Made by a program: the position numbers and the translations under genes. Shown here piece after piece: positions 1,705 through 46,789 of a stretch of DNA of 64,000 bases. A model generated the notes under the pieces. It was given only the letters and a program-made list of their open reading frames with translations. It made no database searches and was not told the origin of the DNA. Each line of letters starts with the position of its first letter. Position 1 is the stretch's first letter. The DNA is from Marsupella aquatica. Its lineage: Eukaryota; Plantae; Marchantiophyta. The stretch lies in contig OZ316896.1 of the NCBI GenBank assembly GCA_973895155.1, positions 6,624,166 to 6,688,165 on the forward strand. Reading direction: 5' to 3'.

Positions 1705-4185
1705 TCTATCTGGTAGAGAATGTTTAGCCCATTTGGTTGAGTAGAACAAAAATGATTTTTTTTAGAGATCCATGTTGATTTTGGCTTGAACTTAGTTGAC
1801 CCACATTACTGGCCCATATTTAATAATTACTCTTTCCCAGTTTTTGAGTGACAACTAGCATAGATTTGACATGCGTTATACTTCTCACACACATTACTAT
1901 TCTTGCATGGGCTTCCATTCTTGCACACATGGCAATTTTTACACAAGAGACTTTATTGTGCATCAACCCACGTTGCATAACTCTCATCATTGATCAACAA
2001 ACATCAATAGTTAAGACTAGCTTGTTATCTTATTTTATTACCCAAAGTACTATCCAAGTTTTTGTTTAAATTTGGCATCAAAGAATGTGTATCATTCTTG
2101 CAAATGAACACAACATTTTCTTCACAGTTGCCACACGAGTGTCTTGAATGGTCACACCAGTGATATGACACGTTGCACAATCTCCACCTTTGATAAGTAA
2201 AATCCAACGGATAAGAATGAATGGATGACATGGAATTTCTCTGAATTTATAAATTTGCAAGAGTCTCTAACTGGACCCATAAAGACTGCACACTCACAGC
2301 CTAGTCATCCAGACATTCACCATGCCAGTTTGTTCAAGCTCGAAGGTCCTCCACCATTCCAAACAAATCAGCCGAGCCTCACCCTTCCTCGAGTTTTCTG
2401 TTCTCCATAGTAGTTTGTTCGTCTCTAGCATGCCCAAGCTCTTTGACTTCCACCGTTCCCCTCAATTCACCTGAGAACCTCCTGATGCCACCATCGGCCT
2501 CCGCTCTCTGATCTCCCTTGCCTCACACAAAAATACTCAAACACACAACACAATGCCCACGCAATGAAAAACAACTTCCCCCAACACACGACTCCACGCG
2601 CGCATGATCAATTCAATAATGCCCCTTGTGGACCGTGATTGTTCAAAGCTCTCCATGTGTCGCTCCCACAAAATTTCACCCTAAACCCCATTCAAATTTG
2701 GTTAACTCCTACTTTCATTTATTCTTCTTTTCTCTTTAGCTCAAAACTCAATCTTCACTTAAACCCTTTTCCCCTCTACCAGAGTTAAGCCAATTCTCCA
2801 AAAGTTGTTTCAAGGCAAGTTGCCCCAAATCAGCAGAGCTCACTCCACTCATAAGCTTATTTTCCCGATGACACCATTGTTCCTCCACCCCCCTCTGGTT
2901 GTTCCTTTGCCCCCTTTTCTCCCCGCTTCTCTCCGGTTGAAGTCTTTGGACCCCCTTGATTGCCCCCTGACCTTCCCTCCTGTCCAGTTGGTGTCCTTCC
3001 TGGAGGCCCTCTTTGTTGTGCCCTGGTGGATCCTCCTGTTTTGCCCCCTTCTGTCAATTCCTCATGAGCCCTTTTGCCATGCCTTTCCACTACCCTGTGA
3101 GCTACCCTCAAATACTGACCCTCCAGAGGCTGCCCCTTTCTTTGGCTTCATCCACCCTATCCCAACCCCTCCTGTTGTTTCCCCTTTTAGGATCGCCATG
3201 TCTCTTCTTCCCCCTTGTCTTAGAAACATCTTTTGGTCCCCCTCCCTCTAGATGGACACCCCTTGCACTTCCCCCTCCTTATCCCTCCATCATCCCCCAG
3301 TCTTTTGACTCAACCACCCTCTCCCTTCTATTTCTGTAGATGAAGTGCCTCAATTGGTTGCGATTGGGCCAATGTGGTGCTCAAGCCTGGGCCCTTTGGA
3401 CTCATTGTCTGTCAAGGGTCCAGGCAGCTCCATCCAAGCCCTGTCGATTCTCATGCATTAAGCATTTGCTCTCACTGCATGAACTAAACTTCATTGCACT
3501 TAGGCCCAAGAGGAGTTTTTGCTCAAACCCTCAAAACAAACAATCCTTCAGGGGGTCACAATCCTTCAGGGGGTCTGGGGGGGGTCCACCCTGAGCCCGG
3601 CCTTTGTTGTGACCCAACTAGCTCATAACACCAGTTCAAGTCCCTTATGCACAACCCTAGCTCGAGATTGCCTTTGCTAGAGTAAGGCTTCCTTGCTCTC
3701 AAGTCTTTCCCATACTTAATGCCTTCGAGATGGCCATCCTAGTGCTTGGACCATAGACAAACTCGACGTTGGAGTAAGCAATGCTGGAGCTAAGTGGTGG
3801 AGTAATCAAGTTTTGAAACGTTTGGTCTCTTGCTTCATTGTGGATCTCCACCCCATTTTCTTTGACTACATCATGGACGTTGAGGCTAGATTTTTCTCCT
3901 TTCAGGTTCAGCTTTGTTATGCCCCAATCTCTACTGCCTGAGGCTGTTCAGGCCATTGTTCCAAATTTTGTGGAGGTGATTTTAGACAGTCCAAATTGTG
4001 TTAGTAGATGATTTCTCACCGCATGCATAGACAAATCCTTTCTAGCTTGCTCATTGATGCAGCTTTGGACTTGGTTTGGGTTTGTCTACATTCCAGTGCG
4101 GAAGTTGGTTCTGGAGCTTGGCTTTTGGCCAGTCCTTGGTGGGCACCCTTTTGTTTGTGCTCCTTCATCTTTACCACGTCTTTGA

Positions 4186-4275
4186 GATCAGATCAGATCA
4201 GATCAGATCAGATCAGATCAGATCAGATCAGATCAGATCAAATCAAATCAAATCAAATCAAATCAAATCAAATCA
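4186..4275. repeat. Compound pentanucleotide microsatellite (GATCA)11(AATCA)7, probably an expanded LINE 3' tail
   Basis: Read directly. It abuts a LINE 3' end whose paralogue at 29601 has only (ATCAA)3. Confidence 0.9.
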
Positions 4276-4915
4276 AATAAAAAATTCAATCAAATTCTAA
4301 GCTTCAAAACAACCCAAAGAGTGAAGGGAGCTGTCAGTGGCAAGATGTGAGCTCATGTGAGGACCTTTGCTTCCTCATCGTGTGACCAAACTAAAGGGCC
4401 TAGAGAGTCTCTAAAACTTCAATAGCCTTATCTCTCTTGCTACCAATCGCCATGATATATAGTGCCCAAGCTGCCTTGGAGGTAGTGTAAACAAAGCATA
4501 TAAATTTTGAGCTAATATATGTGTACTACTCTCACCTCATGGTACACTCTATAAGCTATGAACACATGGTATTAATTCTCAATACTAAGACTATCACATA
4601 GTTTACAAGTCCTCTGCTGTCTCTCAATACCACTCCACCTCTTCTACTGCCAAATGATGAGAACTCAGTCTATCTCTAGCTATGATTTTTTCTTAATTGC
4701 AAAGAGATAGGAGCACTAAGTACCCTTGCTCTTCATACAACTGCATTGGAGTCACATCCCTCAAGTAGTGTTGTAGCCTAGGACTAGGATCTGCCCACAA
4801 CTTCTTGATGGCTTGAGCTTGCAATGCCTTTCTTAGTGCCTTTGGAGGCCCTTACCGTTTATCATTTAGTAATCCCCATGCTTCTGCCCACCTAATCACA
4901 TCAGCATATCAACAG
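4276..4915 (-). mobile_element. Degenerate 3' fragment of a non-L1 LINE (RTE/L2-like)
   Basis: The minus strand gives RLSSHHLAVE..., then a degenerate CxxC...E..H motif typical of the RT C-terminal domain of these LINEs. The 3' UTR (gtgaggacct...cttcctcat...accaaac.aaagg.cctagagagtctctaaaa) is shared with 29601-29765. Confidence 0.6.
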
Positions 4916-5459
4916 GAACCTGTACCATGAATGTTTTGAAGTTTTGAGCCCACATTTTAGCGAAAGGTAACACTTGATCGGGTTCCTTACAACAACTAAA
5001 TGCAGTCACTTCTCCACCAAATATACATAAACCATCGAGTGGGTCCAACCATACACTGGCTGCTGATACGAAACACACTCGAAATGTTACTTATCTTAAA
5101 AATATCATCGGAATTGGAACTGTATTCTATAATATCGCTAGGCGCTAACAAAAAACAAACCAAGATTTCTAGCCCATTGCAATAAACTTATTGCAAAAAT
5201 ACCTACAAGTGTAAGAGTTTAGATGAGAAGAATTCCATTCCCAGAATGTTAAGAAACGGAAATTTTGGTTTCAAACACAAGTACTTTAAAGAATCCATCC
5301 GGCCCATGAAATGAAAGAGATTCACTCAGAACGGGACAAACTTATGCTAGCGTCGGGCGCTAGCCATATATATTAACCAAATGTGATCGTTGAAAAGAAA
5401 TGAAACATTGCAATGCGACAAATGAGGTTGGAGCCGTTCAACGTTACTAAATCTCTAGT

Positions 5460-8400
5460 CTATAAGTTTAGAGAATTCTGCCTAGCTAGAATGAGCCTCA
5501 CCTCACCTACAGTCAAAATTGGCTGACTAGCCAAAGTTGAATCCACGACATCTAGTTTGAGGACGTTGGTATAAACCCAATATAGATGCTTGCAAGGCAT
5601 GAAAGGCCGTCCATGAGAATGGCGACGATAGAAGTCCTCACAAGAACAGCAGGGGAAAATACAAATCTGCACCCAGTAAGTGTTTGTCGTACGAAGTTTC
5701 TCTTGGGTCTGGATCTGAAATTGTTTGCCCCAAGAGTTTCCGATTGAAACATCAAACTGTTGAATAAGTGTCATCAGCTCGTTGTTTGCAGATTCAATTC
5801 TTTTGTTGTGTCCTTGTGAAAGATTTGAACGTGGGACTGTATTTTTACCATTCCTACTCTGAAGGCAGATATTTGGCTCCAGGAGATTGATTTTCTCAGG
5901 GAAAACATTCACATTGATTCGCAAGTCAAATGGAGATGGAGGAGCCTGACGTCCGGCCTCTGGATTGATCGCAATCCCTTGCTGAGATAGGAATTGGACC
6001 TCAGCTTCCGAAAGATTTGTGCCCTTCAAAACGGGCAGGGTATGAGGAAACGGGGGAAGATTCACCACATTACGACGGGGCCGACTCTTATGGCATGCAT
6101 TATTGGGACAGAACCAAATCATCTCAGGATGTGGTTCTCCCCTGAACATGCGGTGTCCTTTGACAACAATGCCAACTACACCATCCGTTGACGGGTAACC
6201 AACCTTTTTCAGACAATTTCGACACTCATCTCGCTCCGATTTACCACCAAGAGATCCATTACATTGAGGCCCTGCACCATGTTTCGTCACTCTTTGCAGG
6301 TGCCAAGCACCTGGTCGCACATCTGTCTCCAACACAGATGAGTCATGGACAACCCTTTGGAGGTTCGGAGGTGCACTTTGCGGTGCTACAGAAGACCTTG
6401 TCACCCTCCTCCACGGTGGAGTACTCCACTGACAGCCTTCTTCGATTTCGCTTTCCGATAGATCCACAACGCCAATGTTATCGTGAACAGGTCCCTCTAC
6501 ATTCAGGGAGAATTCGATCTTGTTTAAGTTTTTCCTCTTCATGCCTCGAGTATTGGGTGATGTTACAAGAATAGTGTCATGCCGATGGGAGTCTTGTGCC
6601 GAGATGTTCCCAGAGGCCTGACCTTTCCTCTTCACAGACTTTGTTGTAACATCCCCATTGAGTGGACCACTCCTTTCCAGGTCGAATTCAGCCGCACCGG
6701 AAAGAAGCATATTGGAAGCATCTTGGAAAAGTTTTGAAGAACCTGCCTGGTCCGCCGAACGGAATGCCAATTCCCAAATTGTAGGTCCGGTTCCTCGGTG
6801 AAGACCTCTCTTATACGCCGTATATGCTGCAACTTGTGAGACACCCCTGTTTTGGTCCATCTCACATGCTTCGAATAGGCCAGCCTTTTTCTTAGTTTGC
6901 CAAGCCTTCATTATGGAATGCGCCGCCTCTGAAGTAGTACAGTTAGGAATCATAGCGCTTTCCTCCACGCTTTTGTTCTGCATCCACCATAGGAGCAGAG
7001 TTTAGGAAATATGACTTAGCCACATGTACATAAAATCAATGACAGCGCCTGGCGCTAGCAACATTCAAACTATATTTTTGCAAAATTTAAGAAACAAGTG
7101 GTCCATTAATACTAGCACCGGGCGCTAGTATCAAAAACAAGATAATGATGAACGAAACCTACGAGACCACACTAACTGAAAATAATGGTAGCGCCAAGCG
7201 CTAGTATGAGTTTGAGTGGTTACTGGATGTTGAAACTCACCAAACAAATGAAATTTCCCCATTGACGCCATCGGACCACCCACCACGCCAACCAACCTTG
7301 GAGCATTCGAAGCTTCCCTGGAACACAATTCCTAGATCTCCACCATACATCGATATCCCTTGAAATTCTGTACGCTCCAAGAAATGTGGACGCGTTCCTT
7401 AAAGAGTCCCACATCTTCCGATGCTCATCTCGTTTTTCTTCCAATACACCTTCAATCGAGTGATGATGAAACGATTGATAGAAGTGAAACGCATCCGATC
7501 GCTCCTTTTCTGGGTTAGGATGTCCTCCGAAAAATACATTCTGAACAGCATTCCACCCAGCTTGGGCATTGTCAGCCATGAATCCATGGATTACAACATT
7601 ATCCAACCCATTTTCATGGCAAACCTCAATCATCAATTTCCAGGCTTTCTCTAGAGACTCTGAATCTTCTGCTTTCAACTCACATGTGAAAATTGTGCAA
7701 AGAGCACGATAATTGTGATCATAAACATGTGCACTAAAATTTATCCAATCTTTTGTCATCCTCCTCATCACATCAAAACTGACCCATGCCCCTTCCAATG
7801 GACCTCCAGGCTGCATTTGGCGCAACAAATCAACTCCAGATCCGTGCCCTTTTACAGTCATTTTGAAAATATGTGGCCTATCCTCTTTACAGCCTTGACC
7901 TGGGAGCATGTAACATTGTAGAAAGGGAAAGATTATGCATTTCTGCATTTCAACAAGAAACTCCAACTCACCTTTGCCTTTTTGGTCTTGCCGAACGCTT
8001 CGAAAAAGAGATGCAAACTTTTGAGGGGTCGAAACTACCATTAACGACTCCCAAATTTCTCTTTCCTCCAATTCACCAATGTCATTGTTGGACACACAAA
8101 GAGCCTTCCTTAAAGATCCAGTTATAGCGTTCTTCAGACCCGATGGTGTGGCACACGGCGTAGCTTCATGTTGTTTCTTTATGAAGTTGTGAGCAATCTT
8201 TTCAGCACCACGAGAAAAAACTTTTCGACTGGGATGAGCATGAGTTCCGACATGCACAGCAAGACAGGACATATGCTTACAAGTATCCGCATCTAGAAGT
8301 AGTTGAGGGTACATATAAAAAAGCATTGCAGGACATGCTTCAGTACAAAAGGGTAATCGTTGGCAATAGTGACAAACTACGCCACCCTCGTCAATCATCT

Positions 8401-9259
8401 TTCCTACGGTATGTGGCCCCGCGAGTTTGGGTGTCCCATCCCAAGCTTTACAATTTCTTCGTTTCTTCCGCAAAAGATAATCACACTTCTGATTCTGACA
8501 TTCTAGTGCTCCTGTACACGTCACTTTACCAAATTCCCAGAACTTTTTCGGTTGTACATTCGCAGAGGTTGGAAATATTCGTGTCCAGAAGTAGCAGTCT
8601 TTCGGCCGATCCATGTCACGGAGTCTTGAACCTTTTGAAAGAAGACCTTCTGCGGGAGGCAATTCAAATACAACGTTTCCATTGTATTTGCTTGGGAGGC
8701 AATTCACCTGCTCATGCCTGAAATCACATGTTTGGATGAATCGCGATAGTTCACTATGGCCAGTTGATTTGAGAATAGCATCCATCACGCTTTGATGATA
8801 GACAATACCTCCCGCAACACCCCCCACAATGTGTGTCTCCGCAACACCCCCTGCAACGTGTGTCTCGGAAGGAAACTGACCTTCCATCTTGACCGAAGTT
8901 CCCGGATTGGGCAATTTTTGCGAATGAATGGCAACATCCTCCTCATCACTATCGGAAAGGTGAATGACGGGAACCGGATGAATTTCATTCGTAACGGAAT
9001 TATCTCAAAGATTGATATAGTATCTCTTCCCAACGTTCAGTTGCCAAAATCTGACTCCATCGTCGATATCAAACAATGCGTCACCAGCCTCATCTCCAGA
9101 AGCATCAACAGGTTTGATGGAAAGAATGTCATTGATGCCAATGTCAAATCTTCCACAAAGATAGTTCTCACTAACCTGTTTGTACGTATCGGAAGAACCT
9201 AAAGGAATGCGTACAATCTCTCCAGTTCCAGAACGCAGAAGCACAACTGAATTAGACAT
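5460..9259 (-). pseudogene. MULE-type DDE transposase with N-terminal Cys/His (GCM/WRKY-like) region and C-terminal SWIM zinc finger; join(9259..7241,6977..5460), one premature stop
   Basis: Catalytic motifs VSFDVM, FMADNAQA, DAFH (C/DxxH) and TTSEAAH. SWIM motif CSCEDF..CKH. A phase-0 GT-AG intron (7240-6978) joins the two long ORFs. ORF 9005..9286 is in frame with 7220..8914 across a single TGA at 9007-9005. Confidence 0.85.
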
Positions 9260-10159
9260 TGCGGAACAATAATCCCGAATTGACAAACAGAGAAAATGAG
9301 AGAATAGGAGAACATAACCCGACTTAAGTTAAGTGAATTTGTAACAAACTCCAGAAGATTATCGTTTGTGAATGACAAAACTGGTACTAGTCGTAAAATG
9401 TAGAAACATAAATATCGTTTGTCGTTTTGCCAACATCACTACGTACTGGTAACATCAATAATATAGTTTGAGAAACACGGTCAGATATTTACTAGCGCCC
9501 GACGCTACCATAAATATGTCACGGAATTAAAACCCAAAACCAAACTTCATATGCTAGCGCCAGGTGCTATCATTAATCCACATCCAATTAATGGTGCAAA
9601 ACTCTATTAATTTTATTGGAATAACATCAATGTCAAAATACATTGAGTTTGTTTTATATAATTGTTGTTTGTAGGAAATATACACGTATAAAATATAGTT
9701 AGCGCCGGGCGCTGACATAATTTCATGGCTAACATCAGTGTTAATGATGTTATTCTGGTGGTTTTTGAATGCTAGCGCCTGGCGCTAGTATCGAAAGGAA
9801 TGACTTGTATTATCCCAACGGTTATATCTAACGGTAAAGTGCATGAACGTACTCATTGTTTCACGCTTTTTGCAGTTGACTTCCTTAACAATAGCCTACG
9901 GATCATCACTCCTGCCTTACCCCACTTAAAAAGAGGCGTTACATGATATACTCATTCTAAACAGTATCGGCCACTTGTCCTTGTCATGATTGGTGAGTGA
10001 CATCCTTTCCTTCCGCATCGATCTACCTCCCATGATGTCAACCGCCCAAGTTTTAAAGGTTTCCTGGTTGTTCTTTTTGTACGGTAATCTGTTCAGAGCG
10101 TGAGAATAGACACTGGCTCTGTGTTGTACAAGCACCTTTGCAAACTTTGGGGCTCCACG

Positions 10160-13100
10160 ATGCAACCTTCAAGCGCTCCAAGCTCTCCAAGAGGGTATAC
10201 CACGGTTCCGGAGGGAGATCAGGGTCATTGCGAGAGTACACAATCTTCATTCTCTGGGGCATTCTATTCGCGTCATGTTACAAGATCAAGCGGAGCGATT
10301 CCTTCGTCGAACACAACACTCCCGAGCCAGAAGCCAAGAAGGGGCAGAATGGAGACTGATGGCATGACCGATTACGCTTTGGGAGAGGGCAACGAGGTAG
10401 GACTTGGAATGAATGAAGTCATCTCCAAACACATTATGTCGTTTGGGAAAGATTTCCGGGGTAATGAGAAGGAACCTCCACGGATTCCGCTTTGTCGCCT
10501 GGTCCACATGGAGGTTGTTCGGACGTTACAGAAGGAGAGTGCATCAATTGAGAAATTGAAAGACTCATTCCGAAGTAGTGGATACAATCCCAGGATAGGA
10601 ATGCGGTTTTTTGTACAACCGACCGATTCGGATGGTGTGGAGAAAATCTGCACTGAAGAGATCAGGGGGAGTTGGGATCCAATTTGGGTTGCTGAGAACG
10701 AGAAGTTTGAGCTGGAGTGCGAGGCAGATCCTGCCTTTATGATCTTGAAAGACAAAATGTTCTCAGTGTTCGACGGGAATCATCGACTTTACTCGTGGAC
10801 GATGGTCACTAAGGAAAATCTTGACAACGTCAAGTATCATCCCAGAGTTCTCTGCACAATTTTCAAGGGTGACAAAGCTTCACAAATTCAGATTGAGGCG
10901 GCTATGCACACTGTGAACCAGTACGTTTTTTTGCCCTAGCTTGTAATTAACGATTTCCGCAATACTTGTTGATTACATAAATATAGTGTTTATGGAGTGT
11001 TTATAAAATAATACAGTGTTTATAGGATAATTGAGTGTTTAAGTTAAGCTAGCGCCCGACGCTAATAATTGAAAACCTGACCTATTGCAGGTTAGGGCAG
11101 GCCGTTGTTGAACCGTCGTGGATCCTTGACGCAGACAGAATCCGAAGGATTCTTTCTCACGATCTAGAGCACTACAAGTCTATCATTGACAGCGCCAATT
11201 ATGCAAAGTTTGAGTATATCAAACAGAAGACTCGAAAACATTCTTGGTACACAAGAAAAATGCCTCTAGAAGCTCTAGTCTGTATTTTATGCGAAAACAA
11301 AATCAAAGCTTACACTAACCAGTTCAAGATGGACATGGCACTGGCAGCAAGTCAAGGCAATCCTTGGTCGGCTGATGACATCACAAAGCGGCAATCGCTC
11401 ATGTTGAAAGAATCTACTAAAGATTGGTCCACAAAAACGTCCAAAATCACTCCTCTTCTTAGTCCTGAGTTTGAAGATTTTCTAGGTACCTGTGCAGAGA
11501 TGTATGTTTTGACAGAGAAAAACAAGCGAGAGAAAAAACCAGATTCGGTTGTTTGCACTATGGACCGTGCCAGACTCTTCACTGCAGTTTCGGCGCTTGA
11601 TCCAAAATTGAGGTGTACATTGCTCGTTGCTCACTGTACTCCAGAGTTGAGAAAACAATTCTTCCACCCTTCGAGTGTGAACGATGATCCAGTGAAGCAA
11701 TGGTGCCACACATGGCAAACATGGAATACCGTCGAGGGAATTGCAATTGGGATGCTACACTCGGCAATTTCCGCAACGATTGAAATGCTACCGGTTGATA
11801 GGCTTGCCCAGTCAGGGTGTGACTCGGTAGAAAATCTGATTGAAGTAATTTCAAGTGAATTCCGAAGGTATGGGGATCTTGTGAAGGCAAAGTTCTTCAA
11901 CACCTTGTGGCCATCAAAATACCCTGATAAAGAGGTATATACCGAGAAAAATCAGAAGAGGGCCAAGAGGTATTTGTATCGTTTCTACATTTGGATGGAA
12001 ATTCATTCCCCGGATGCTCTTTGGTCGTATCCAGCCGCATTTCACAAGTGGATTATTGTAAAGGAGGGAGATCTTGTTTGTGACTTATACTCGATGTATC
12101 CTGCCGAGGGTAAACTACCCCCAAGGGAAATGTCCGATTGGGAAAGAATTCACTGCCCATGGTACCTTGACACAGACAAGTGGGATTCACCCTTTGATGA
12201 AGTGGAGAAGGATTGGTTTCTGAAACTTGCAAAGTCGTAGATCCTTCCCAACATTGTTTCTGAGATGAGGCAAGGTCTCCTTAGCGACATCGATAAATCT
12301 TCTACGGAGTTACAGACAATCTGTGAGACAGTAGTTGTCCATGTAGATAGGAGCCGCAAGCCACGAGGGAAAGTTAAAATAGACACTACAGTGCCAAGTG
12401 CCTCCACGCGATCCGGAAAGAAACGTAAGTTTTCAATCTTTTATCAAATGTTTGCTAGCGCCTGGCGCTGCCATTCTTGTGATTCAATCTTCATCAGTGT
12501 TTGCTTGAAGGCCCTAATCCCACATTCTTTGCAATATGTCCATAGGTCAAAAGAAGTCAGATGTAGATGGCACAGATGATACGAAGGTTACTCCAGAAGC
12601 TTCAGAAGCAAATACTGGCGCTTTGCCAGATCCACTTACACCAGTTAATTCTGGGAAATCGATTGTCCCAGTCGATGCGACGAGTACAAAAAAGAAAAGC
12701 AGAAGGACTCGAGATGCTGGACAATCAGAACGGGATTCTCAAGCTGCCACTGGGCTCCAACGTGATGTTGGGGATTTTAAAGCCAAGTTGTCTCGTCATT
12801 GTTTCGTTGAGACCAGTGTCAGTGAACTTGTGGACAGTGTGTTTAATAAGGAGGAGAAGCCAGAATGGGTAAATGATGCCGAAAAGTGGGGGAAAGACCT
12901 GATCAAATCTGGATGCCGGCTGAAAGGAGTGGTGAGGGGTGGGAAGCAAAGACCTTTTGGTGTTGACGCTGGTTTTATTTACTTGCCAACTGGACTAAAA
13001 CCGACTTTGCTTGACAGAAAGGTCCCTAAATGGAACGTCCCCGACTGTACCCTAGCCCGATCCTTTTTCCGGGCAATGGATCCTTTTTTGTCGGATGATA

Positions 13101-14025
13101 GAATTATTGCGATACTCCATACGGGGGAGTATGATCAAATTTCGCAGGTCATCTCCGCTTGTCAAGAGTCCAAGAAATTCCAGTGTCATGGAGATTCCCC
13201 ATGACGACATTGGGAACTAATTACGTGTCCAGGAGATATTGTTCTGGATTGGGCTGTAGGTTCGGGGAGTACATTTGTTGCAGGTGATAATTGTGGTCGT
13301 TTTGTAATTGGACTCGAGAATAGGAAGGAGTTTGTGGAAACCGCTTCTAAGGTATTTCTGGATCTTCTTACTCCAAAAGAGTCTGAGCCCAAAGCCCCTC
13401 CAAAGTCTTCAATTTCAAAACAAAAGAGAGACAAACTGAAGTCTGTTTTAAATTTTGATTCTGAAGATGAGGATGAGACAAAAGAGGGGGAAGAAGAGGA
13501 GGATCCTAACATTCCCAAAGTGTCCCTTACCGGAGAAGATCCAGGATCTAATGGAGGGAGTGACAGCGGAGACTCTTCTGAGTAAGAAGCTTCCGAGTAA
13601 GCTCTTAAGCAAACCCTTTTTGGGGGTTTTTTAGTAGATTACCTTATTCTCTCTTAGATTTCTCGTTGTTTTTTTCGTTTTTTAAAATATTCTTGGTGTT
13701 GACATAAACCCCTAAACTTCTCGTCCTCAGGTCAGACTGGAATCTTCGCCGGCATTTCAAACTCAGAAGGAAAGTAGCTAGGCGATATATTAAAACTCCC
13801 GAGAAACCATTTGTACTACCTTCCTATGCTGAGAATATTGCTAGACGAGCTGATAGTGTGCGGATCCTCCATTGGGAGCATAAAGGTTTGAGATTAAGGA
13901 GAGGGTCTGATAGAAAATTTATTCGTAGTCGATATGTTGATGATATGGCCGAGAACGAATTTTTAGACATGGAGGCAGAATCCACCGACAGGTCCGAGTC
14001 AAGTGAATCAGAATTCTCAGATTGA
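10160..14025 (+). pseudogene. ParB/Srx-like domain + beta-class N4C/N6A DNA methyltransferase-like fusion; join(10160..10920,11091..12424,12546..13581,13731..14025), two in-frame stops
   Basis: ParB-like: IPLCRLVHMEVVR...IEKLKDSFRSSGYNP...FSVFDGNHRLYSW. MTase motif X-I-II-like: ELITCPGDIVLDWAVGSGSTFVAGDNCGRFVIGLE (~13214-13320, missed by the ORF track). A degenerate motif IV-like VDAGFIYLPTG lies upstream. All three GT-AG introns preserve frame. Stops are TAG at 12238 and TGA at 13202. The start codon is uncertain. Confidence 0.75.
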
Positions 14026-14699
14026 TTTCCCTCGGACGGGTATTTTGGGATTTATATACACTGAAGTTATACTAGCGCCGGGCGCTACTGTTATGTAACC
14101 TGTAAAAATCGTTTATTCAAATGTATTCGATACATTGGATACTTTTTTGGTGTATCTTTATTCTATTATGTTCTCTATATTCGAATGTTTTTATGGTAGC
14201 GCCTGGTGCTACCATAATTTAATGTCCATGATCATATACCCGCATATTTTTCAATTTGGTTTTGTCCATTTTCAGGGTAGGTTTACTTCCTAAGACTGGA
14301 CATTCCGATTGGTCGAAAACAATTGACCTGCAACTCCGTTTATTTTGTGTCTATTTCTCAATTGAATTATGCTAGCGCCTGGCGCTAGCAAAACATATTT
14401 CGGAAACATTGTCCGTTAAGTGTTTTCCACATGTCAGCGACAACTATTTTGTTTGTTCCTTCTGTTATTAACGTAAACATTTTAATACTCTAATATTAGC
14501 GTCGGGCGCTACTATAACTGTATGACGGTCAAGGCTATCTTACAATGATTCTCCCGTACGCTCTGGATGACGTCATTGGAAGTTTCAAGGTAATATTTTG
14601 TCCCGTTCTAAGTTCGTTCGGCCTGTCGCGACTCGCATGTGAGCTGATACCGGATTTTTCTCATACAAACGGTCACTTCACGTCACAACGGGACTTTGC

Positions 14700-15521
14700 A
14701 TGCAAGAAACATTTCGGGATTCCAATAATGGTTTTGGTCGACCATTTTTGAATGGAGACGATGGTAAACATCGCAACTATCATGTGAGATGGGAGTGACC
14801 GTTCCATGTTGAACGGGTAGTTTGGGGACTTTGAGGGTGCAACGTCCAACCCCTCCCTCATTTCGGTGGGCGTATCCAGGTCGAATGGATTTGCTTATAA
14901 TACTTGGGAGATTAAATCCCGACTGCCTTGTTTCGCTACTGCTTTATTGGTTTCTGTTTCCACTTTCGATAATCTTCGAGCTCTTTCGCTGACCGGGGTC
15001 GTATTGACAACTATATCTTTGAATCTGCCTAGAGGTGTCTTACCATGAATTACCCGAGGAGAATCTCCGTGGCCTCTTTTCAGAGACACACAACAATCAT
15101 TTCAGAGGAGGGCTCGGTTCCAGAAACTGAGCAGCCTGAATGGTCGGAGACAACTGCTTTCTACAACCATTTTAGTCTCCCCCAAGACGAAGCCATTAGT
15201 CCTGGTGACAATCTGATCCCATGGCTGAGGGATTCTCCGCCTAGGAGATTTGCAGAGCGGTTTACGATTCACTGACCACCTCCTCCTTACAGTCCAACTC
15301 GGGAGGATGAGATGAGGAAACAGGAAGAACTTGGCCGTGTTGATTTCCAGAACACGACCATTCCTGGCGTGTTTCCCCAAACCGGTGATGAGCGAGTTCC
15401 GTCGATGGCGTTCGTGAGGAACCGTGAGCACGGTTTCGTTCCAGATAGAGCCCGATCTAATGCTGGAGTGAACGATAAATGTGGCTCATCGACCAATGAG
15501 CGAACTAGCGCCGGGCGCTAG
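14700..15521 (+). pseudogene. Possible decayed third ORF of the MULE element, unknown function
   Basis: ATG 14700 and ORFs 15045..15275 and 15312..15521 share one frame, interrupted by several stops. No recognisable motif. Confidence 0.25.
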
Positions 15522-15990
15522 TGTTGGTCGATAAGACTATGGTGCCCATTGCGCTCAAGTTTTTCCAAATGTGATGAAGACTTCGTCGGGACTCGACCGG
15601 AATTTAGAAATCTTGTCGTTAGAGTAGCCATTTTGGTTATCGATTGTGTGGAGTTCGGTGAAGTGCCTACCACTAGTTTACTGTTTGGCCATTTTAAGCG
15701 AGAGGCATCGGAGCCGCGTTTCTTTTTGAAACTTTCATACCTTTCGTTTACGGTGTGGTTATGCGGATCACTTTTATCTTTTGTAAGCGCCTGGCGCTAC
15801 CATCTTACTTAAAAAAATTGTATCGCAAGACTTTGTGGCTTTGGGGTGGCGTTCAATTATGCGAATTGGTTGGAGTCTGTTCTTTTGGATGTATAACCCT
15901 AAATGTTGGTCCGATGGTCCCTGTGGTTTCGTCATATTTATCACGTCGGCCTCCGTCTGACTGAGCGGTATAACTAGCGCCCGACGCTAG

Positions 15991-16341
15991 TATCTGCACA
16001 AGTCCATAGCCAAAGTCAACCCGTGCCGATACGAGACCGAGCAAGCTTACAAGAGAGCCATTCGCTTAGCCGGCCGTAATCACTATAACGACAACTTTGA
16101 CCTCCCATTTCAGAGTGAGCTTTGCCAAGTCGACAAAATCAGCGAGTACTTCTTTGTCGACGAGAAGTACGTTGGGTTCCAGGAAGCGCTTCTTTGGCTT
16201 CCAGACAAGGTTTACCATCTCCCGGGCACGATAGACTTGCAGGCGCATCACTACAACCATATCCCCGCCCAGGTTCAAGCCTCCATAGAGTCAGTTTGGC
16301 CCTGCCCGAACAAGCAAAACTCCTATCTTAACATCACTTGA
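15991..16341 (+). pseudogene. 5'-truncated open frame (YLHKSIAKVNPCRYETEQAYK...SYLNIT*), probably an LTR-retrotransposon accessory ORF
   Basis: About 116 stop-free codons with no start codon. It begins directly after the last palindrome and ends just before ORF 16367. Confidence 0.4.
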
Positions 16342-16366: not shown

Positions 16367-18522
16367 ATGGCGCCTCCCCCAGCTGCCACTGGCGCCCACC
16401 CATCCGTGTCCGCGCCAACACCGCCCCAGCCTCAGCCAAGCCGATCTCCACCACCGATTGCACCACCTCTCCGAGTGCGATCCGTGGTAAATGCGGTGAA
16501 TATTAGCTTTGAAGACAAGGAGGCTCACCCTCCTCTGAACGGACGGCCGCGGGGTATGACTCAGCAGGCGCCAAGCAACCCGGTGCCACTCCAGCCAGCC
16601 CGAGGGGATAACACGGTGACTCTAGCGGCCCCGGCACCAATACTCACGGCAGTACCACTACCGCCGCCCGACCGGGAGGATGGGGAGATGTCCCCCTCTT
16701 CTAGTCACCCCGGGAATCAGTCTCGAGGTAGAAAGAGAAAGGAACCCGTAGCTATATCTGGGTTGCCTTTAGCCATGGTTGCAGTGGCCAAGCTGACCAT
16801 GCATCGCATGGGGGATAACGTTCACAAGAACATCCTCCACCCCAAGCATGCATGCTACCTAAAGACCCAAGGGTTTGAGCACCTCGCCTCTCTCCCTTGG
16901 AATGGAAGCAGGTACTACGGGCAGGATATGACGGAGTTCATTCAGAACTTTGACGAGGCCCGTCAACAAACCAGCGCACACGGGAGAGTGATGTGTCTCA
17001 ATGAGGCACGTTTGAAGATGATTTTTGGCCTACTCGAGGGGATAAACCGGGTAGAGTCTCGGGCTCCTAGGGGCAAGGGAGCTAAATACCAGTCCTCTAG
17101 CTTCCCGACCGAGGGAGCAGTGGACAACGGATTCTTGATGAGGACGTGCGTCATCCCGGGGGTAGCAGAACGCCTGGAGTTCCAGCGGTATGCCCTTCAC
17201 ATGATGGAACCACGAGGTGAAATATCCGCCGCCCAGGTCATACAAGTAGAGAACTTTTGGCCTAGGAGGTGGGCGTCCTTCTTCATCAAGAAGTTCCACG
17301 AGGAGATGGAGCGAAGAAGGAAGACCTTATACCTTGGCGGAAAGGCGTACTTTGCGAGCCACATCAAGATCATCATCGAGTGGTACGTCCGTTTTGACCG
17401 CCGAAGCCTTCCCTGTAGCAACGAGACGGAATTGACTCCGTCAAAGTGGGTGTTCCTGGCTTAGGAGAGGCGACCGCAGCCCAAGGCCCAAAACCTGGTT
17501 GTCGCAAGACCTGCTTCCCCGACCCCGCCACCAACGGCTACCGCCCGGCCAAGCGTACCCATGGACGCAGTTATCGCGACCTTGGAAGCAATCAACCAGG
17601 TCAACGCAATCAAAGCCGGGCCGACTGAGGCCAGACCCGAACCCGATACTACGGTGGCCAAGGAAATCCTGCCACCCCCACGGCTGTGCAGGAGAACCGA
17701 CCAGTGGAACCAGCCCCTTTGACAGACTTACCTCAAGGGCTGGATGTTTCCACTCCTACTCCCGCGCGGGCTGGGGTCTGCCTGTGCCCAAATCTAGATG
17801 GGCATAGTCTGGACCACCCAGAACTCTTTGCGCCGGGCACATTTTTGAATGGGTTGTTGGGAGATTTCTCTCAAAAAATCGCACGGGATACCGGGGAATA
17901 CATGGCACAAAAGGTGGCCTACTTCTTCAACCAGGAGTTGGTTGCAGCTATAAAGGCAGGACGTGCGCAAGCTGAGATGGCGCAGAGAATAGAGCGGTAC
18001 CGGGTTGAGTTTGTCTACCTGAAGGACGAAGTGGCAGCCCTAGAGATTGAACTCCAGCAACTGCAACCTCAGGTAACGGCCACGGAGGATCAGGTTGTCA
18101 AGGTCAGGGCCCGGGCAGCCTTAGCAGAGCAGGCCAGGCTCGGAAAGGACTTCGAGATCGCATGGCTCCGAACCAAGATTGACGGTTTGAAGGGACAAGC
18201 CGTCATTTGGCAGAAAGATCTAGAGGAAGTTGACTCTTGGTCTCAGCGGAACGCAGCCGAGATAGACACCCTGAAGACGGAGGTGGCGTGGCTTCAAGGA
18301 GAAGCCACGAAGCAGGCCCAATTGGTGGACAAGCTGATGAGCGACGTCCAGCAATTGGAGGAGACATGCCAGGAGGCCGCAAAGGAGACGGACACAATGA
18401 AGCGTGAGAACAAATCTCTGCTGGACCAGGTCCAGCTACTCAAGCAGGATGCCGACAGGCTCAAGAGGCAACAGGATAGTCGCTCCTACTCAGGCGGCTC
18501 TGGCAATCGTGCCAGGCATTAG
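16367..18522 (+). pseudogene. Accessory ORF of a Ty3/gypsy-type element: Pro-rich N-terminus, plant-mobile/Athila-ORF-like domain, coiled-coil C-terminus
   Basis: MTEFIQNFDEARQQTSAHGRVMCLNEARLKMIFGL resembles the EFYxN...G..i....i...lgl pattern of such ORFs. The frame continues past TAG 17462, then shifts near 17686 into a heptad-rich ORF. It lies upstream of a PPT and LTR. Confidence 0.6.
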
Positions 18523-31100: not shown

Positions 31101-33541
31101 AGTGGTGGACCAAGCCCCCCAACGCCCTCTTTAAACCCAATACTCTTTCCCAGGTACCTTTGGTGCCCAAACGCCTTCACGGAACTCCACAAGCAAGCAA
31201 CACGATGCCTCTATCACCTCCAGCGATAAACTCCCTTACAAAGCGGTTGCACTTGCTTTGTAACGCAACCATTTCTCAATGGTCCCTACTATCTACACAA
31301 GCAACCAACCCCATTGGTAAGTAATCATCATGATCTTGGATTCCAACACCATTTCTTGCCTCAAGCTCAATAGTCATTAGTAAATAGGTCAGCGGATAAA
31401 ATCTTTCAGAGCAGCATTGTCGTGATAATTTAATTATTCAAGATGGAATCACTTTTACTTTAAGTTATTACTAAGTATATAGGTTAGGTTTATATTTCAT
31501 TACGGGATAACTAAATAGTTTGACTATTACTCGCTTTATGTGCATGCAAGAGAAGCAACGATGCAAATCATAAGATGCATGCATAAATTGTTTTAGATGC
31601 AGGCGTAAATTATTTTATTTGCATGTAATAGTTATTTTATGTTCATGCAAGGTGAGAAAATATTGAAGCCACAAGGTGCATGCACAATTTATTTTAGACT
31701 CATTTAAATCATTTTATTTGTATGCATTAGTTGTTTTATGCGCATGCAAAATGAGCAAATACACAAGCCACAAGGTTCATGCATGCACAAATTATTTTAG
31801 ATGCATGCATTATTTGTTTTGATTCCAATAGTACTAGCACACATTCTTACATTGGATGTGTATCACTTGGTTTTTATCTAAGCGTTTAGGCGTAATTTAT
31901 GTCCTCTTGGATTCAATATAAATAAAGTGGTTAGGAACACTCTCTTCTCAATTCTCACATTTTGATAATTCTTTGGTCAAAGTAATCTTCTTTTCATATC
32001 TCATCTTTTTCTTCAATTTTTTGCCTTATGTACATAGTAGTGGGGCGTCATTTGGCCCGGATAACAAAGAAAAGAATGATGAATTTATAGATGGGACCTT
32101 AGGGAACAAGGTCTCTTTGGAAACTTAGAGGTGGGGCATCATTTGGCCCAGATAGCAAAAAAACAAAAGAACCATCATGAATTCAGGAGAGAGAGAGATA
32201 TATCTTTAATCTTCCCCTTCATAACCCATTTTTTATTAGAGTCCATTTTTTGGACAAGCCATCCATGAGGTAATATTTAACCTATCACTATGAAGCTTAA
32301 TTTGTAGCTGTTTTATGGGTTCTAACAAGCCAATTATAGTATACCCAGTAATATCTTATTGAGAGGAGTGGGAGTGCATTATCTTTGTTTTCTATTAAAA
32401 TCATGGATCTGAATAGCAATCCAAATGATATTCCTGTTTTATTTTTTTTTGAAGATAAGGATTATATGTCGTAGAAAATTTAATTTTTGAGAGGTGTTGG
32501 TCAGCAAGCATGATAAAATAGAGTTTAATAGTATATGAATTTCAACAGAACGTTTCTTAATACCCACTACCCTTGTTACTAGAGTTATCATTTTGGTTTT
32601 AGTATAGAACTTATGGGCATGTAAGGTTGACTTCATAAGAGCAAACATGCTCTTACCACAAAACACGATCACCCGGACATAAATAACAATCATACTGAGA
32701 AATCGATGGATTTTGAAGTTAGCTTGTGCATGTCTAACTTTTGGTTGATAAAGAGAGATATGATTTTGGAACTATGAGTCCTTAATTTGTCAGTATATCA
32801 TTAGTCAAGAAGAAAGATTTGCAATCATGAGGACTTTGCTGAGCTGAACTGAAAAAGCGCACAGGCGGCGCCGGGCTGTGTATACACTTAACGTGTGGGC
32901 TGTGTATACACTTAACGAGTGATAGGAAGGGATCCGGATTGGAATGCGGAGATTCGAGCTGTGCTGCCCAGAAGGATGGCATAAGCGTTTAGATAGGCGG
33001 TGACAAGTGATAGTTGATTTGACCCAGGTATCTTGGCTGGGGGTTATCGCGGCTATAGCAAGATTTAGGTTGTGCCAGTAAGGTCACAACGCAACAGTGG
33101 ACTCTGCCGCTTCAAGGCGGTGGATGAGGGGACACTTTCTTGCTGAGGTTGGTCCCCGTGGAGCGCATTTGGTGGGGTATAAGGGTGACATTGGCACAGG
33201 GCCGCTGCACCAGGAGGATGCTATACCACGTCTTTTTCGGGAGTCAAAACGGGAGGAATGTTCTGGTGGATTCTGACTCTAGAAGATAGGTGGGCATTTG
33301 CGCTGTACTGTGGGATTCTTCACTAGGATCTCAGAGGAGCACTATTGCGGTGTCACTCTGAAATCGTGGTGGAGCAGCTCATCGTGACTCTAGAGATCAT
33401 ATGTATGTAAGTGATTGGGAGATGCGGGGATTCTGATTGGGAGCCGCTCTGAAGTGGGAGAAGGTACGTCCGATTTGTTTTCTTACCTTTGGCTTGGTTG
33501 CATTGTTGTTACCTTGCGACTGTGGAAGCAGGGAAGATACT

Positions 33542-35614
33542 ATGGCAACAATGGATTACTACGGAAAGGTGGAACCCTTGGTGCGGGATAGAGGGGTGAG
33601 AGGCGGACGCATTCCTACGACCGGTAGGGAGAGGGGTGAGTTCGGGAGGCAGCTTGAGAGGGGGCCCGCGGAGCTTCAATATGGTGGCACTGGCGAGGCA
33701 GAGGACCCTGGAAGAAAGGAGCATTTAGGGGACAAAAACGGGGGGTTGCGGGAGCGATTCTCGGCTCAAGATGCCAGGCGAGATTCGGAGGTGAGCCGGG
33801 GTTTACTGCCGGTCAGAGGTGGCAGTAGCTTGGCTATCGGGATTAGAAGCATTGTAGACTCACAAGCGCGTCTGGACTGGGGGGATCTGATGGAGCTGGA
33901 AAGTGAGATGCCTGGAGGTGATCCTATAGTAGGGGGGCATATATGGCTGGACTCAGAAAATGCGCTGAGAAATGTGGGCCGACGAGAGTCTGCACTGGGG
34001 GAGCTGAGGATTCCTGTTGAGGAGGAGGCTTCTGAGGAATGTGTGCGAATTCTACAAAATATTGGGATTCGATCTAAAGGGAATCTTGATAAGAAGCTTT
34101 TCACAACTCTCGATTGGACTATGGCGGAAGCTGCTCTCAACGTGAGACAACTGTATAATTGTGCACTTATGTGCTTCTTCACGGACAGGCCACCTCTGCT
34201 ACAGGTGTTTCGAGAGTGGGTGGAGGAGGTGATGACTAGCCAAGGTAATTGGCCGGTCCTCTAGATTAAATTTGTGGGGAAGGGGTTTTATATGATTGTC
34301 TTTGAGCATCCGGATCATCGGGACATGGCGCTAAACTCTGCCCCATGGTTTATGGATCGGAGATTTGTATACACGTTCCCATGGGACCCCTCTTTTGACA
34401 TTAAAAATGAGACATTCACTAAACTGCCGGTATGGATAGAGCTTCCTTTTCGGGATCTTGCATTGGAGGGATGCAGGAGGCAGATTGCTTGCTCACTGGG
34501 CCCTCTGCTTTACTACATCCAGGGAGATCAGTTTAGCTCCTTCCCCCATGATAGAGCGTGCATTCTCTGGGACACGGATCGGGAGGTCCCTACTAGTGTT
34601 AGAATTCGAATTAGGGATGATATCGTGATATGGCAACCAGTGACATTTTGCAACATTCCATATCACTATTATAAATGTAATAAGAAGGGTCACCTGGCAC
34701 GTAATTGCGGAGAATCAGGGGCATATGAGCCGCCTGTGATGGTTGAAGCAGAGATTCCAGATGAGAAGGATGATGAACGCCATTCAGAAGCAGATGCGGA
34801 AGAGGCTCAACGGGCTTTGGATAACGCCAAGGCCAGGGCGGAATTCAGGGAGGCCAGGGCATTGCAGGTGGAAAACCAGCAAAGGAAGGCTGTGGAGGTA
34901 GATATGGAGCAGATCGAGAGGATGGTCTTTGAGAGTAGCAGGCACAAAAACCGGGTTGAGGGTTCGGGCTTAATGACAGGTGAGCCTGTTCATCTGAATG
35001 CGGGGATGCCCTTGGCAGTGGTGGCTAGAAATGAGTTGGCTCCGGTGGAGGTGGTTCTCCCATTGGCGTGCAGGAGCGAGTATGGAAGGAAGGAGACTGT
35101 GCTGGATGCCAAGGCTTTGATTTTTGAGCCGCCCCCTTTTCCTGCGGAGCAAGGGAACTCTAGACTGCTACAGGCCTCTGACTTTAATCGGGGGGACTCT
35201 GGCAAAGAAGCTTTCTCGTATCATGGTGATTCGGACGCAGAGATGTCTGAATATGAGACTTACATTTCAAACAGTAAACTCAAGTCCAGAGCACGGAAGC
35301 AGGAGCTGAGAACTCCTCCCACTGTTACCAAAGACAAACTGAAAGGTGATTCCAAGAAACAACGTTCCCTAAGCTTCTCACGAGGATGCTTGTCTGATGC
35401 AGGTGTTGGTGACAGGTCCTCACGGGGACACAAAGGGCTGGCACGTACCGAGCGATCCGATGGAGAGGAGATAGGTAAGGTTGTGGGAGAGGGGTCCTCT
35501 GGTGTAAACAGGGGTGGTAATCGGCTTAAGTTGATACCTTTTGCTGCGGTCTCAGGCAACCTGAGAATTAGCTCGGATGTGGAGATGTCTCCCGGGGGAC
35601 GAGCTCGAATTTAA
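33542..35614 (+). pseudogene. L1 ORF1 (DUF4283-like + zinc knuckle), one premature stop
   Basis: VGKGFYMIVF, APWFMD, LPVWIELP and degenerate knuckle YYKCNKKGHLARNC. TAG at 34262 lies between in-frame ORFs. Confidence 0.85.
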
Positions 35615-35670
35615 CTCAACTCGGAGGCAGAGATGGAGGCCGCTGCTTCGGTGATTCAAATTTAGGCTAG

Positions 35671-38600: not shown

Positions 38601-39588
38601 TCCAGGGCGCTGGAGCATTCAGGATACCCTGAGATGCATTACAGAGTTTAACTCGCTGCCAAACAAGGATATATTAGGGATCACTGCCATTTGTGGCAGG
38701 CTGGGCTTGAGAAGTATTAGGGATGGATGGTGTACGGAGAGTGTTGGTTGGAAGGAGATGCCCTTGCGGTGGCATCAAATGAGGGGTTTCTCTGAGGAGC
38801 AACGCGGTTTGACTAAGGCATTTTTGGCGAAGATCTAGGCGTCTGGCTCTTGTACCCTGAACCTGGACCCTGGGGCTCGGAGGTGGAGATGGGCTGATAA
38901 GGTTGGGCCCCTGAAGAACTTTGATATTGCAAATTGCAGGGTGTATGAGTTTCTTAGACCATCTGTGTCATTCTATGAGCGTCTGAACTGTATCTGGTCA
39001 TCGAATGGGACTGAGATGGAGTGGAATAAGAGATGGAGTCAGCTGTGGAGGTCCGATCTCTCTTGCAGGGCCAAGACCTTCATATGGAGGGTGATTGTTG
39101 GGGGTCTGTTCACGGGTGAGAGGGCTCTTAGAATTAAAGCTAGTAACGGCGAATGCAAGTATTGCAGTGGGCTGCTGGAGTCGATGCCACATCTGTTTGT
39201 TCAATGCAAGTTTGCTATCAGGTGCTGGCAGATGTATAGGGATGTGCTTGAGACTCTGCGGGTGCCTTTCGGTGTTGGTCTATTGCCCCTGTTGGATGAT
39301 TCCTTGGGGAAGGAAGTTACTCATTTTGTGAAGCTGTTTATGCTTTACCAAATGTTGTGGATGATTTGGAGGGCCCGTAATGATCATATGTTCCAGGCCG
39401 GTGCTGGTAGGAAATTTGATTTTGGTTTGGTGCTCACTGAGACAGCAGATCACTTGTTTGCTGTGGGCTGCCATTTTCCGCTTGGCAGGCGTCATGCCCG
39501 GGTGAGCCGGGCCCGCGAATGGCTTGCTTTTCATCGTCAGGATTGGTTTTGGGCTGGTCGGCTTCGCTTTGGTGGTGGCGTGGTGTGA
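35671..39588 (+). pseudogene. L1 ORF2 (APE endonuclease, reverse transcriptase, zf-RVT), frameshifted
   Basis: SWNVCGL, LQE, GDFN, SRLDRF, DHDP; KSPGPDG, WRPLTMLN, LDFEKAFD, QGCPLSP, LFADD; CKYC..ESMPHLFVQC. Confidence 0.92.
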
Positions 39589-39822
39589 TGTCTTTTGGCG
39601 TGGTAGTGTCATTGTTAGTTGCTCATTAGTTTTCTTGGGCTCCCAGGGGCCCTGTTGGGGGTGTGGGGCTGCTGGGGTGTGTTGGCCCCGGACTGTTGCC
39701 CCTGCTATGTTGTTAGGTTCTGGCTGCATTGGCCTTTGTTGTCCCCCCCTATCCGTGGGGTTTCACGGTATTAAAATTTATAAAAAATCCATTCCAAGGA
39801 AAGATTTGCAATCATGGGGACT

Positions 39823-42800: not shown

Positions 42801-42976
42801 AGAAAGTCAGACCAATAGCAACTCCTTTGCCTTTAGATAATAAGGAGATTCTGGAGAAGACAAAGAATGAGACCAGTCTTAGAGATCGGACTAAGATTGG
42901 CCATAAGTTCACACAGAAGACATTAGAGACATTTAATCAACTAAGGATTGGTGATGATGGGCTGTTGAATTTTTGA
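39823..42976 (+). mobile_element. Degenerate Ty3/gypsy gag-protease region, truncated before RT
   Basis: FDGRNATRYLKRY, knuckle CIWCGSKEHFRRVC, protease-like ALIDIRSEVNLMS (~42046) and YDLILGQPY, then TKYKIMDKKVRPIATPLP. Many stops and frameshifts. Confidence 0.75.
41610..41748. repeat. ~39-bp tandem repeat, about 4 copies, inside the gypsy remnant
   Basis: gaccacagatg.(c)agggtcttcaaagg..gagat.cct is repeated. Confidence 0.8.
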
Positions 42977-46720: not shown

Positions 46721-46789
46721 GGGGGCCCACACTGTGTAGTGTTCCGCTGGACTACTAAGTGGCATGGATTGATGCTTGCAACTTAATTA

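Follow-up and report, generated by a model that had tools for sequence, protein, structure and literature searches.

Introduction

Among the described systems closest to the locus reported here is the Ectocarpus transposon Sola1-1_Ec32, whose accessory gene of ~1,100 residues joins a ParB-like domain to an N4C/N6A methyltransferase domain on the strand opposite to the transposase, and whose accessory protein has been proposed to act on its own element by binding and modifying it, with an active methylase being predicted (PMC12477816; this and all other reports are cited here from excerpts of their texts). In red-algal Plavaka, Mutator, and Zisupton elements, a Bostrychia preprint describes PAG2, with a PF01555 and a SET domain, and PAG3, with a ParB-like and a 2-oxoglutarate (2OG) oxygenase domain beside inverted-repeat arrays, and the same source presents VANDAL/VANC as the sole known case of a transposon system that binds its own sequence and modifies it (bioRxiv 2025.02.11.637652). 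In that system, VANC21 lowers methylation and binds VANDAL21 in its introns and in its other non-coding DNA, both intergenic and terminal (PMC5735166). Here, we describe a locus of the liverwort Marsupella aquatica (contig OZ316896.1, positions 6,624,166 to 6,688,165; this whole stretch of 64,000 nucleotides is called the window), in which a probable Mutator-like DNA transposon carries an accessory gene on the strand opposite to its transposase. A part of that gene, 12950–13360, had been flagged from its letters as a hidden beta-class DNA methyltransferase domain with a non-canonical catalytic motif, a claim to which we refer as the original prediction.

We lean, with moderate confidence, to the explanation that the original prediction had caught the tail, now broken, of an accessory gene in a transposon, and that the intact product of this gene would be a non-catalytic, methyltransferase-shaped protein that binds the element itself.

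A Beta-Class Domain on Both Sides of a Stop Codon

The + strand frame that begins at 12536 reads FIYLPTG, with YLPT at 12980–12991, and runs into a TGA at 13202–13204, after which the same frame continues as PGDIVLDWAVGSGSTF/PGDIVLDWAVGSG and later as GLENRKEFVETA, with DWAVGSG at 13247–13267; the + strand list of open reading frames (ORFs) is empty over 13205–13333 in that frame. The piece after the stop matched Pfam PF01555 (N6_N4_Mtase) with E = 1.1e-7 and 32.5 bits, the cut-off being 26.7 bits, over profile positions 176–220 of 221, and its S-adenosylmethionine (SAM)-binding half also matched a PHROG DNA methyltransferase family (E = 8e-9). The ORF before the stop, searched alone, matched no Pfam family at E ≤ 1. 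YLPT (12980) precedes DWAVGSG (13247), that is, motif IV comes before motifs X-I, and the family profile aligns to CcrM in the same order; read from the sequence, this order of motif IV, target recognition domain, and motifs X/I is the signature of the beta-class amino-methyltransferases.

Two alignments support the register of YLPT: in a multiple alignment that includes four bacterial DPPF domains, their D-P-P falls on the x-L-P of the family, and the structural alignment of P0006, an intact Calypogeia relative, with CcrM begins with model residue 43 on chain residue 22, which places F52 and N55 on Asp31 and Tyr34 if it runs ungapped for 12 residues (CcrM numbering from PMC6787082). A global profile alignment to the bacterial domains did not register motif IV, probably owing to a family-specific insert; the trimmed alignment, which excludes P0063, did. 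The motif I of the window reads D-W-A-V-G-S-G against D-P-F-x-G-x-G, with Ala at the Phe position.

The original prediction had placed a beta-class SAM-binding half past the TGA, missed by the ORF track, with motif IV before X-I and with YLPT at the position expected for DPPY/SPPY, and all of this held, the score against the N6_N4_Mtase profile that it had proposed as a check lying above the cut-off.

The Catalytic Motif Across the Family

Searching 1.84 billion representative proteins returned 83 matches, of which 67 were plant-type family members, the other 16, which match the SAM half, being methylases of bacterial type. The motif rows, also 67, were obtained from these 83 by removing the 16 bacterial-type proteins and three short fragments (P0045, P0047, and P0054) and by adding three cluster members, and about 40 of the 67 cover any one motif. 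All family members with a name belong to two liverworts, Calypogeia fissa and Riccia sorocarpa (20 proteins were looked up, 10 of which carried no name or only a generic one), and PF01555 was found in 10 of the 13 rows of alignment A1 at E ≤ 0.1. No related DNA loci were found in metagenome or viral contigs searched with the window protein, and three loci returned by a motif search (L001–L003) were rejected as chance matches in bacterial sequence, one of them in the wrong frame.

Not one of the 40 aligned relatives has a complete (D/N/S)PP(Y/F/W) motif IV. Its fourth position is never Y, F, or W (0/40), its third is Pro in 39/40, and its first is Asp in 8/40 and Ser in 3/40, being otherwise A, Y, F, C, or R. 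The eight Asp-keeping rows are all from Riccia sorocarpa (DLPS, DMPS, DMPT, and DPPT), YLPT recurs in at least six other rows, and the family consensus of motif I reads DWxxGxG. Judged from this alignment, the odd motifs are a family trait and not decay of this copy. The original prediction had weighed a dead reader or shield, an enzyme of altered specificity, and decay of this copy, and had named D/SPPY in intact copies as refuting the pseudo-enzyme idea alone; its absence from all 40 relatives favors the pseudo-enzyme, and decay and pseudo-enzyme are both true at different levels, given that the copy is dead, as set out below, and the odd motifs are family-wide.

On the SAM side, the relatives keep the motif I Asp in 37/40 and its two Gly residues in 37/39 and 36/40, and motif II has Glu or Asp in 38/40. 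The motif I Phe position is occupied by T, A, or S, with an aromatic residue one position earlier in 35/39. The replacement of the F of FxGxG had been read correctly in the original prediction, but as evidence it is weak, because the bacterial-type matches P0065, P0066, and P0075 also lack this Phe (DPCAGSG and DPTAGSG).

In the beta-class motif IV, (D/N/S)PP(Y/F/W), the first residue takes the target-amine proton and the last one stacks the base (PMC7544214), the motif IV residues of CcrM being Asp31, Pro32, and Tyr34 (PMC6787082). Changing SPPY to APPA abolishes the activity of the rotifer enzyme (PMC8885841), and because of this result, together with the motif states of the family, we infer that catalysis would have been lost, and we hold this part strongly.

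It is unlikely, in our view, that the intact protein is instead a working, SAM-dependent enzyme whose acceptor site has been rewired to act on a protein amine, RNA, or another base, or which uses different catalytic residues. Such an enzyme would agree with the SAM-side residues being among the most conserved columns and with near-invariant residues of the family's own (His123, Pro187, a PxWNxW stretch, Phe336, and Arg378 in P0002 numbering), and the eight Asp-keeping Riccia sorocarpa proteins might be active. Column conservation was ranked in the 59 rows left after removing these eight, and there, the 33 filled rows have A11/F8/Y8/C3 at motif IV position 1, which stands at the 38th conservation percentile, with the motif I Asp (30/33), Gly (31/33), and Gly (30/34) and the motif II Glu (29/34) at the 90th–97th percentile. 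The first position is free among A, F, Y, and C in the part of the tree that holds the window, unlike a catalytic position, and the stacking aromatic is absent in 40/40; eroded motifs of this kind mark the inactive subunits MTA9 (NALW) and METTL14 (EPPL) (PMC7544214).

Predicted Fold and Phylogeny

When the family profile was compared with known structures, only beta-class ones matched at E < 0.06, including CcrM over profile positions 128–312. The AlphaFold2 model of P0006, built from a 67-row alignment, reached a predicted local distance difference test (pLDDT) score of 85.8 and matched CcrM with a Foldseek E of 8e-13 and with Z 18.0 and a root-mean-square deviation (rmsd) of 3.3 over 194 residues. 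Its best fold matches were CcrM, M.BceJIV, MboIIA, and M1.HpyAVI (Z 16–18), with METTL3/14 and MTA1/9 at Z 9–12. The intact relative is predicted to have the permuted Rossmann, CcrM-like fold, and the window copy lacks ~79 residues of this domain. The Riccia sorocarpa members P0051, P0063, P0067, and P0085 carry the UniRef label “Trimethylguanosine synthase”, which looks like a mis-annotation, the model's fold matches pointing to beta-class DNA methylases.

In the tree, drawn with the long row P0056 excluded, a branch supported at 99/97 splits the eight Asp-keeping rows from the other 29, window included, and the window pairs with P0001 (100/97) on the Asp-less side. The family is separated from 12 bacterial-type rows at 99/91, over 77 columns only. 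In rooted trees, the Asp-keeping rows branch first with weak or unresolved support, and a stepwise erosion of the motif was not borne out. Among the viral fold matches with the lowest rmsd is a phage protein labelled ParB/Srx (rank 18, rmsd 4.1), and a prokaryotic or phage origin would fit both this match and the tree; no donor was found.

The Accessory Gene and Its Broken Copy

The accessory gene was modelled as four exons with three GT-AG introns (10921–11090, 12425–12545, and 13582–13730) giving 1078 codons, and its spliced frame contains only two internal stops, TAG 12238 and TGA 13202 (Table 1). Exon 2, the two halves of the methylase domain, and exon 4 all match the Calypogeia protein P0087 in tblastn (residues 1–110 against 12130–12435 in exon 2, E = 6e-8; residues 520–602 against 13738–13977 in exon 4, E = 1e-15), which supports the four-exon model. 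Exon 3 is 65% identical to P0001 over 211 residues and is also matched by Calypogeia and Riccia proteins (tblastn), and the splice phases and the terminal exon are common to the window and Calypogeia. Exon 2 had no Pfam match. In exon 1, a DGNHR motif lies at 10772–10786, the PHROG ParB-like match is weak (E = 0.071), and in the Atlas rows, with scores of 0.92–0.94, ParB_N occurs in 11% and DUF3723 in 31% of the members, a ParB_N cluster standing at rank 22 of 30. The PDB sequence matches of exon 1 were to galectin-8 at E ≥ 0.02 and were judged to be chance.

Table 1. Features of the Mutator-like element and its accessory gene (window positions).
Feature	Position	Strand	Basis
Accessory exon 1 (start uncertain), ParB/Srx-like region with DGNHR; weak assignment	10349..10920	+	
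Accessory exon 2, middle region without known family; end joined to methyltransferase domain in annotated relatives	11091..12424	+	P0087 match
Premature TAG within exon 2, before the entire methyltransferase domain	12238..12240	+	Splice model; sense codon in most contigs
Accessory exon 3: low-complexity linker, broken methyltransferase-fold domain, acidic tail	12546..13581	+	GT-AG model, P0001, tblastn
Motif IV position, YLPT in place of (D/N/S)PP(Y/F/W)	12980..12991	+	Alignments and structural register
Deletion scar with TGA 13202–13204; 76–83 codons lost, probably with an intron	13187..13213	+	Spacing in relatives, alignment A1
SAM-binding half: end of motif X, motif I DWAVGSG (13247–13267), motif II Glu (13316–13318)	13214..13348	+	Pfam PF01555, PHROG
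Accessory last exon, conserved LPxYAE stretch	13731..14025	+	P0087 match; GT-AG intron 13582–13730 keeps frame
Mutator-like element (MULE) transposase exon 1, head-to-head with accessory gene	7241..9004	-	Atlas MULE clusters
Transposase exon 2 with CxC...CKH finger	5460..6977	-	GT-AG intron 7240–6978
Palindrome TAGCGCCNGGCGCTA, 18 copies (≤2 mismatches), in introns, intergenic, and in both flanks	5133..15989	.	18 found vs. 0.07 expected

From the strand after motif VI to the PGD before motif I, 94–101 residues were counted in all nine intact relatives measured (9/9) and 18 in the window, so that 76–83 codons are missing and 13187–13213 is the scar. On this comparison, the TGA at 13202 marks an internal deletion and not a stop inside a contiguous domain. 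The original prediction had placed the second half of the domain just past the stop; both halves share a frame, but in intact relatives these halves are non-contiguous, being separated by the part deleted here. Many database fragments of the family begin or end at a common ‘QV’ within the missing part, and this shared boundary suggests that an intron was lost together with the deletion. One sequencing contig diverges after 13187 and another before 13238, which is consistent with longer copies. With the ~79 lost codons added to the 1078, the intact accessory protein would have about 1,150 residues, with the methyltransferase-fold domain toward its end.

At 12238, a sense codon was found in 213/213, 562/740, 4196/4346, and 1502/1548 depth units in the contigs of all four DNA runs (76–100%), and therefore, the stop is private to this copy or to few copies. 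Between 435 and 1687 contigs per run align to the 4.3 kb at 80–100% identity, which we read as a multi-copy family with diverged subfamilies, depth not being copy number. With the stop at 12238 and the ~79-codon deletion, the copy in the window is dead.

We consider it highly improbable that YLPT and WAVGSG are private to this copy, or that the TGA is read through or spliced out into a contiguous domain. The frame shared across the TGA would allow this, but YLPT recurs in the other rows, DWxxGxG is the consensus, and the stop at 12238 comes first. Read-through or a tiny intron at the TGA was rejected, since the 27-nucleotide scar is far shorter than the introns of the gene (121–170 nucleotides) and the protein would still be 76–83 residues short.

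That the accessory gene is functionless cargo decaying in all lineages seems to us very unlikely. The many relatives that are fragments, with P0005 and P0028 also lacking internal parts, speak for it, as does a copy broken here while its transposase frame is open, and of 29 exonic copy differences, 12 were synonymous and 17 residue-changing (these come from 40 of 831 differences, a biased subset). Against it, structural and SAM-side columns are 85–100% conserved among relatives that are mostly 20–60% identical, the family fold is modelled confidently, and splice phases and the terminal exon were kept between the window and Calypogeia.

The Host Element and Its Palindromes

The transposase gene has two exons and 1093 spliced codons without an internal stop, in a copy whose accessory gene is broken at two points. 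It has an N-terminal Cys/His region, a finger in exon 2 that we take to be SWIM-like, and candidate D, D, and E positions picked by eye. The top Atlas matches were MULE PF10551 clusters (0.92–0.94), and all 10 of the 10 best named ones share the family or clan; a Pfam search gave no MULE or SWIM match.

The 15-bp palindrome TAGCGCCNGGCGCTA occurs in 18 copies and nowhere else in the 64 kb. The transposase intron holds three sites, two of the accessory-gene introns hold one each, four sites separate the two genes, and the flanks contain nine; none of the 18 falls in a modelled exon though exons make up 60% of the span (p about 7e-8). The consensus reaches ~23 bp with A/T-rich arms (window 5127–15995), and of its 15 deviations, 11 are C-to-T or G-to-A changes, the pattern expected from decay of methyl-cytosine. 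At codon boundaries, the element has 79 CpG against 118.5 expected (0.67), and in the same window, the ratio is 0.33 in frames of long interspersed nuclear elements (LINEs; p 2e-4), 0.10 in long terminal repeat (LTR) frames (p 2e-7), and 0.71 in a host gene. Within the palindrome-marked span, a CpG-rich + strand frame of ~250 codons with two stops (15045–15790) matches Meth_synt_2 below threshold (Pfam E = 0.001) and is possibly a decayed third gene of the element.

A further explanation, a serious alternative although we rate it as unlikely, is that the palindromes are sites of the Mutator transposase, the accessory protein being catalytically dead and acting by protein contact or by non-specific DNA binding. 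The transposase frame is indeed open, with its Cys/His region, and no terminal inverted repeats beyond the palindromes were found around the element, so that internal motifs may serve synapsis; moreover, a Mutator transposase alone can activate cognate copies, acting as a sequence-specific regulator (bioRxiv 2026.08.24.746577). Nevertheless, the sites lie in the introns of both genes and between the genes, not only near the ends, and this placement fits the binding of VANC21 on VANDAL21 (PMC5735166) and the repeats by the ParB-like PAG3 (bioRxiv 2025.02.11.637652).

Weighing a Proposed Self-Binding Accessory Protein

Under our favored explanation of a non-catalytic, element-binding protein, a prokaryotic or phage ParB–methylase fusion would have been captured by a DNA transposon, and the captured protein would have lost the target-base pocket, keeping the fold and probably the pocket for SAM or S-adenosylhomocysteine (SAH). 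Being probably a dimer like other beta-class enzymes, it would dock on the palindromes and so help to keep the element expressed or mobile, in the way that VANC21 acts for VANDAL21, and the broken copy in the window would rely on intact copies in trans. That the accessory protein recognizes the element's own repeated palindrome seems likely, and we hold this with moderate confidence; that it may help to keep the element active is a weak suggestion, drawn by analogy and from the CpG ratio of the element. In a bolder version, which we find doubtful, a ParB-type clamp would load at parS-like palindromes dispersed over the non-coding DNA and spread a dead, SAM-sensing methylase fold along the element, shielding liverwort Mutator elements from host cytosine methylation; this would be a VANC-like anti-silencing system of prokaryotic origin, its motif IV having been worn down in steps, from DPPY by way of DPPT/DLPS to YLPT.

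Besides the autonomy of Mutator transposase cited above, several observations weigh against the self-binding protein. In the SAM pocket, the motif III Asp position is Ser in 17/25 and the HPTQKP-type motif X is altered, and with the motif I Phe also replaced, SAM binding is plausible but doubtful. Exon 1 had no Pfam match and no homologs among longer proteins, phages, or plasmids, and its single-sequence model is unusable (pLDDT 34), so that its ParB identity is at best weakly suggested. The palindromes are known from one element copy only. Finally, the unrelated ORFs at 16367–18519 have a codon-boundary CpG ratio of 0.69 (p 0.92 against the element); the high CpG of the element may be non-specific, and its youth or the local context could account for it.

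The Rest of the Window

Immediately left of the element, 4180–4280 is a tandem array of AGATC/AAATC pentamers. To its right, 16367–18522 (+) holds two intact ORFs with high CpG and no palindromes (365 residues without a family; 278 residues of coiled coil), which probably belong to another element. Two decayed LINE-type retrotransposons lie at 33437–39588 and 44862–50735 (+), with ORF1, endonuclease, and reverse transcriptase named by eye, and fragments identified likewise by eye as Gypsy-like (39784–42976, +) and Copia-like (60641–62719, −) show strong CpG depletion. The exons of a host F-box/leucine-rich-repeat gene, also recognized by eye, at 55300–58550 (−) served as the CpG host control.

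Comparison with Known Systems

The family shares with CcrM, M.BceJIV, MboIIA, and M1.HpyAVI the motif order, the predicted fold (Z 16–18), and the acidic and Gly residues of motifs I and II, and it differs from bacterial beta-class enzymes in lacking (D/N/S)PP(Y/F/W), in the replaced motif I Phe, in its 13–18% identity to them, in its introns, and in residing in a eukaryotic transposon. An eroded motif IV within a kept fold recalls METTL14 and MTA9, whose MT-A70 clade is, however, a more distant fold match (Z 9–12 vs. 16–18); an active partner methylase subunit was not found in this element. DIRS1 retrotransposons carry an inactive methylase domain (PMC4738411) and offer a precedent for a dead methylase on a mobile element. 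The host enzyme MpDN4MT1a/b of Marchantia is active and carries TSPPY (bioRxiv 2021.02.12.428880), and together with the rotifer N4CMT (PMC8885841), it resembles our case as a beta-class methylase of bacterial origin in a eukaryote, in one instance a liverwort; in contrast, both are active host enzymes with SPPY and, in the excerpts of these sources, are not described as transposon cargo. Literature searches, with most subscription papers outside their coverage, returned no liverwort or bryophyte transposon-borne case and no family-wide loss of the catalytic motif.

Compared by description, the Sola1-1_Ec32 accessory gene and ours are alike in belonging to a DNA transposon, in lying opposite to the transposase, in their ~1,100 residues, and in the N4C/N6A-type methyltransferase domain, a ParB-like front being only weakly suggested here; the former is from a brown alga and the Sola superfamily, and ours is from a liverwort and a Mutator-like element. 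In the excerpts used, neither a catalytic motif nor palindromes are given for the former. The algal accessory proteins were not recognized among the matches with looked-up names. PAG2 and PAG3 are likewise transposon accessory genes, with a PF01555 domain in the former and, in the latter, a ParB-like domain near repeats, although they are separate genes and the repeats are tandem, in contrast to one gene with dispersed palindromes here. VANDAL21 is also a Mutator-like element. Its VANC21 is an accessory gene in a transposon, with sites that match where our palindromes sit; the VANC21 targets are tandem repeats, and anti-silencing was demonstrated there and would only be conjectured here.

In summary, published work assumes that the algal ParB–methylase accessory proteins methylate their own element, and the motif loss described here, with the fold and the SAM side kept, points to binding and not to writing. 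The element offers a defined candidate site, and Riccia and Calypogeia offer full-length domains with and without the catalytic Asp. A second self-binding transposon system, unrelated to VANDAL/VANC, would be notable if true, the copy in the window being only its relic. ParB-plus-methylase accessory genes are already known from algal transposons, and the liverwort case, with its family-wide motif loss, is the part for which the literature searches gave no earlier report.

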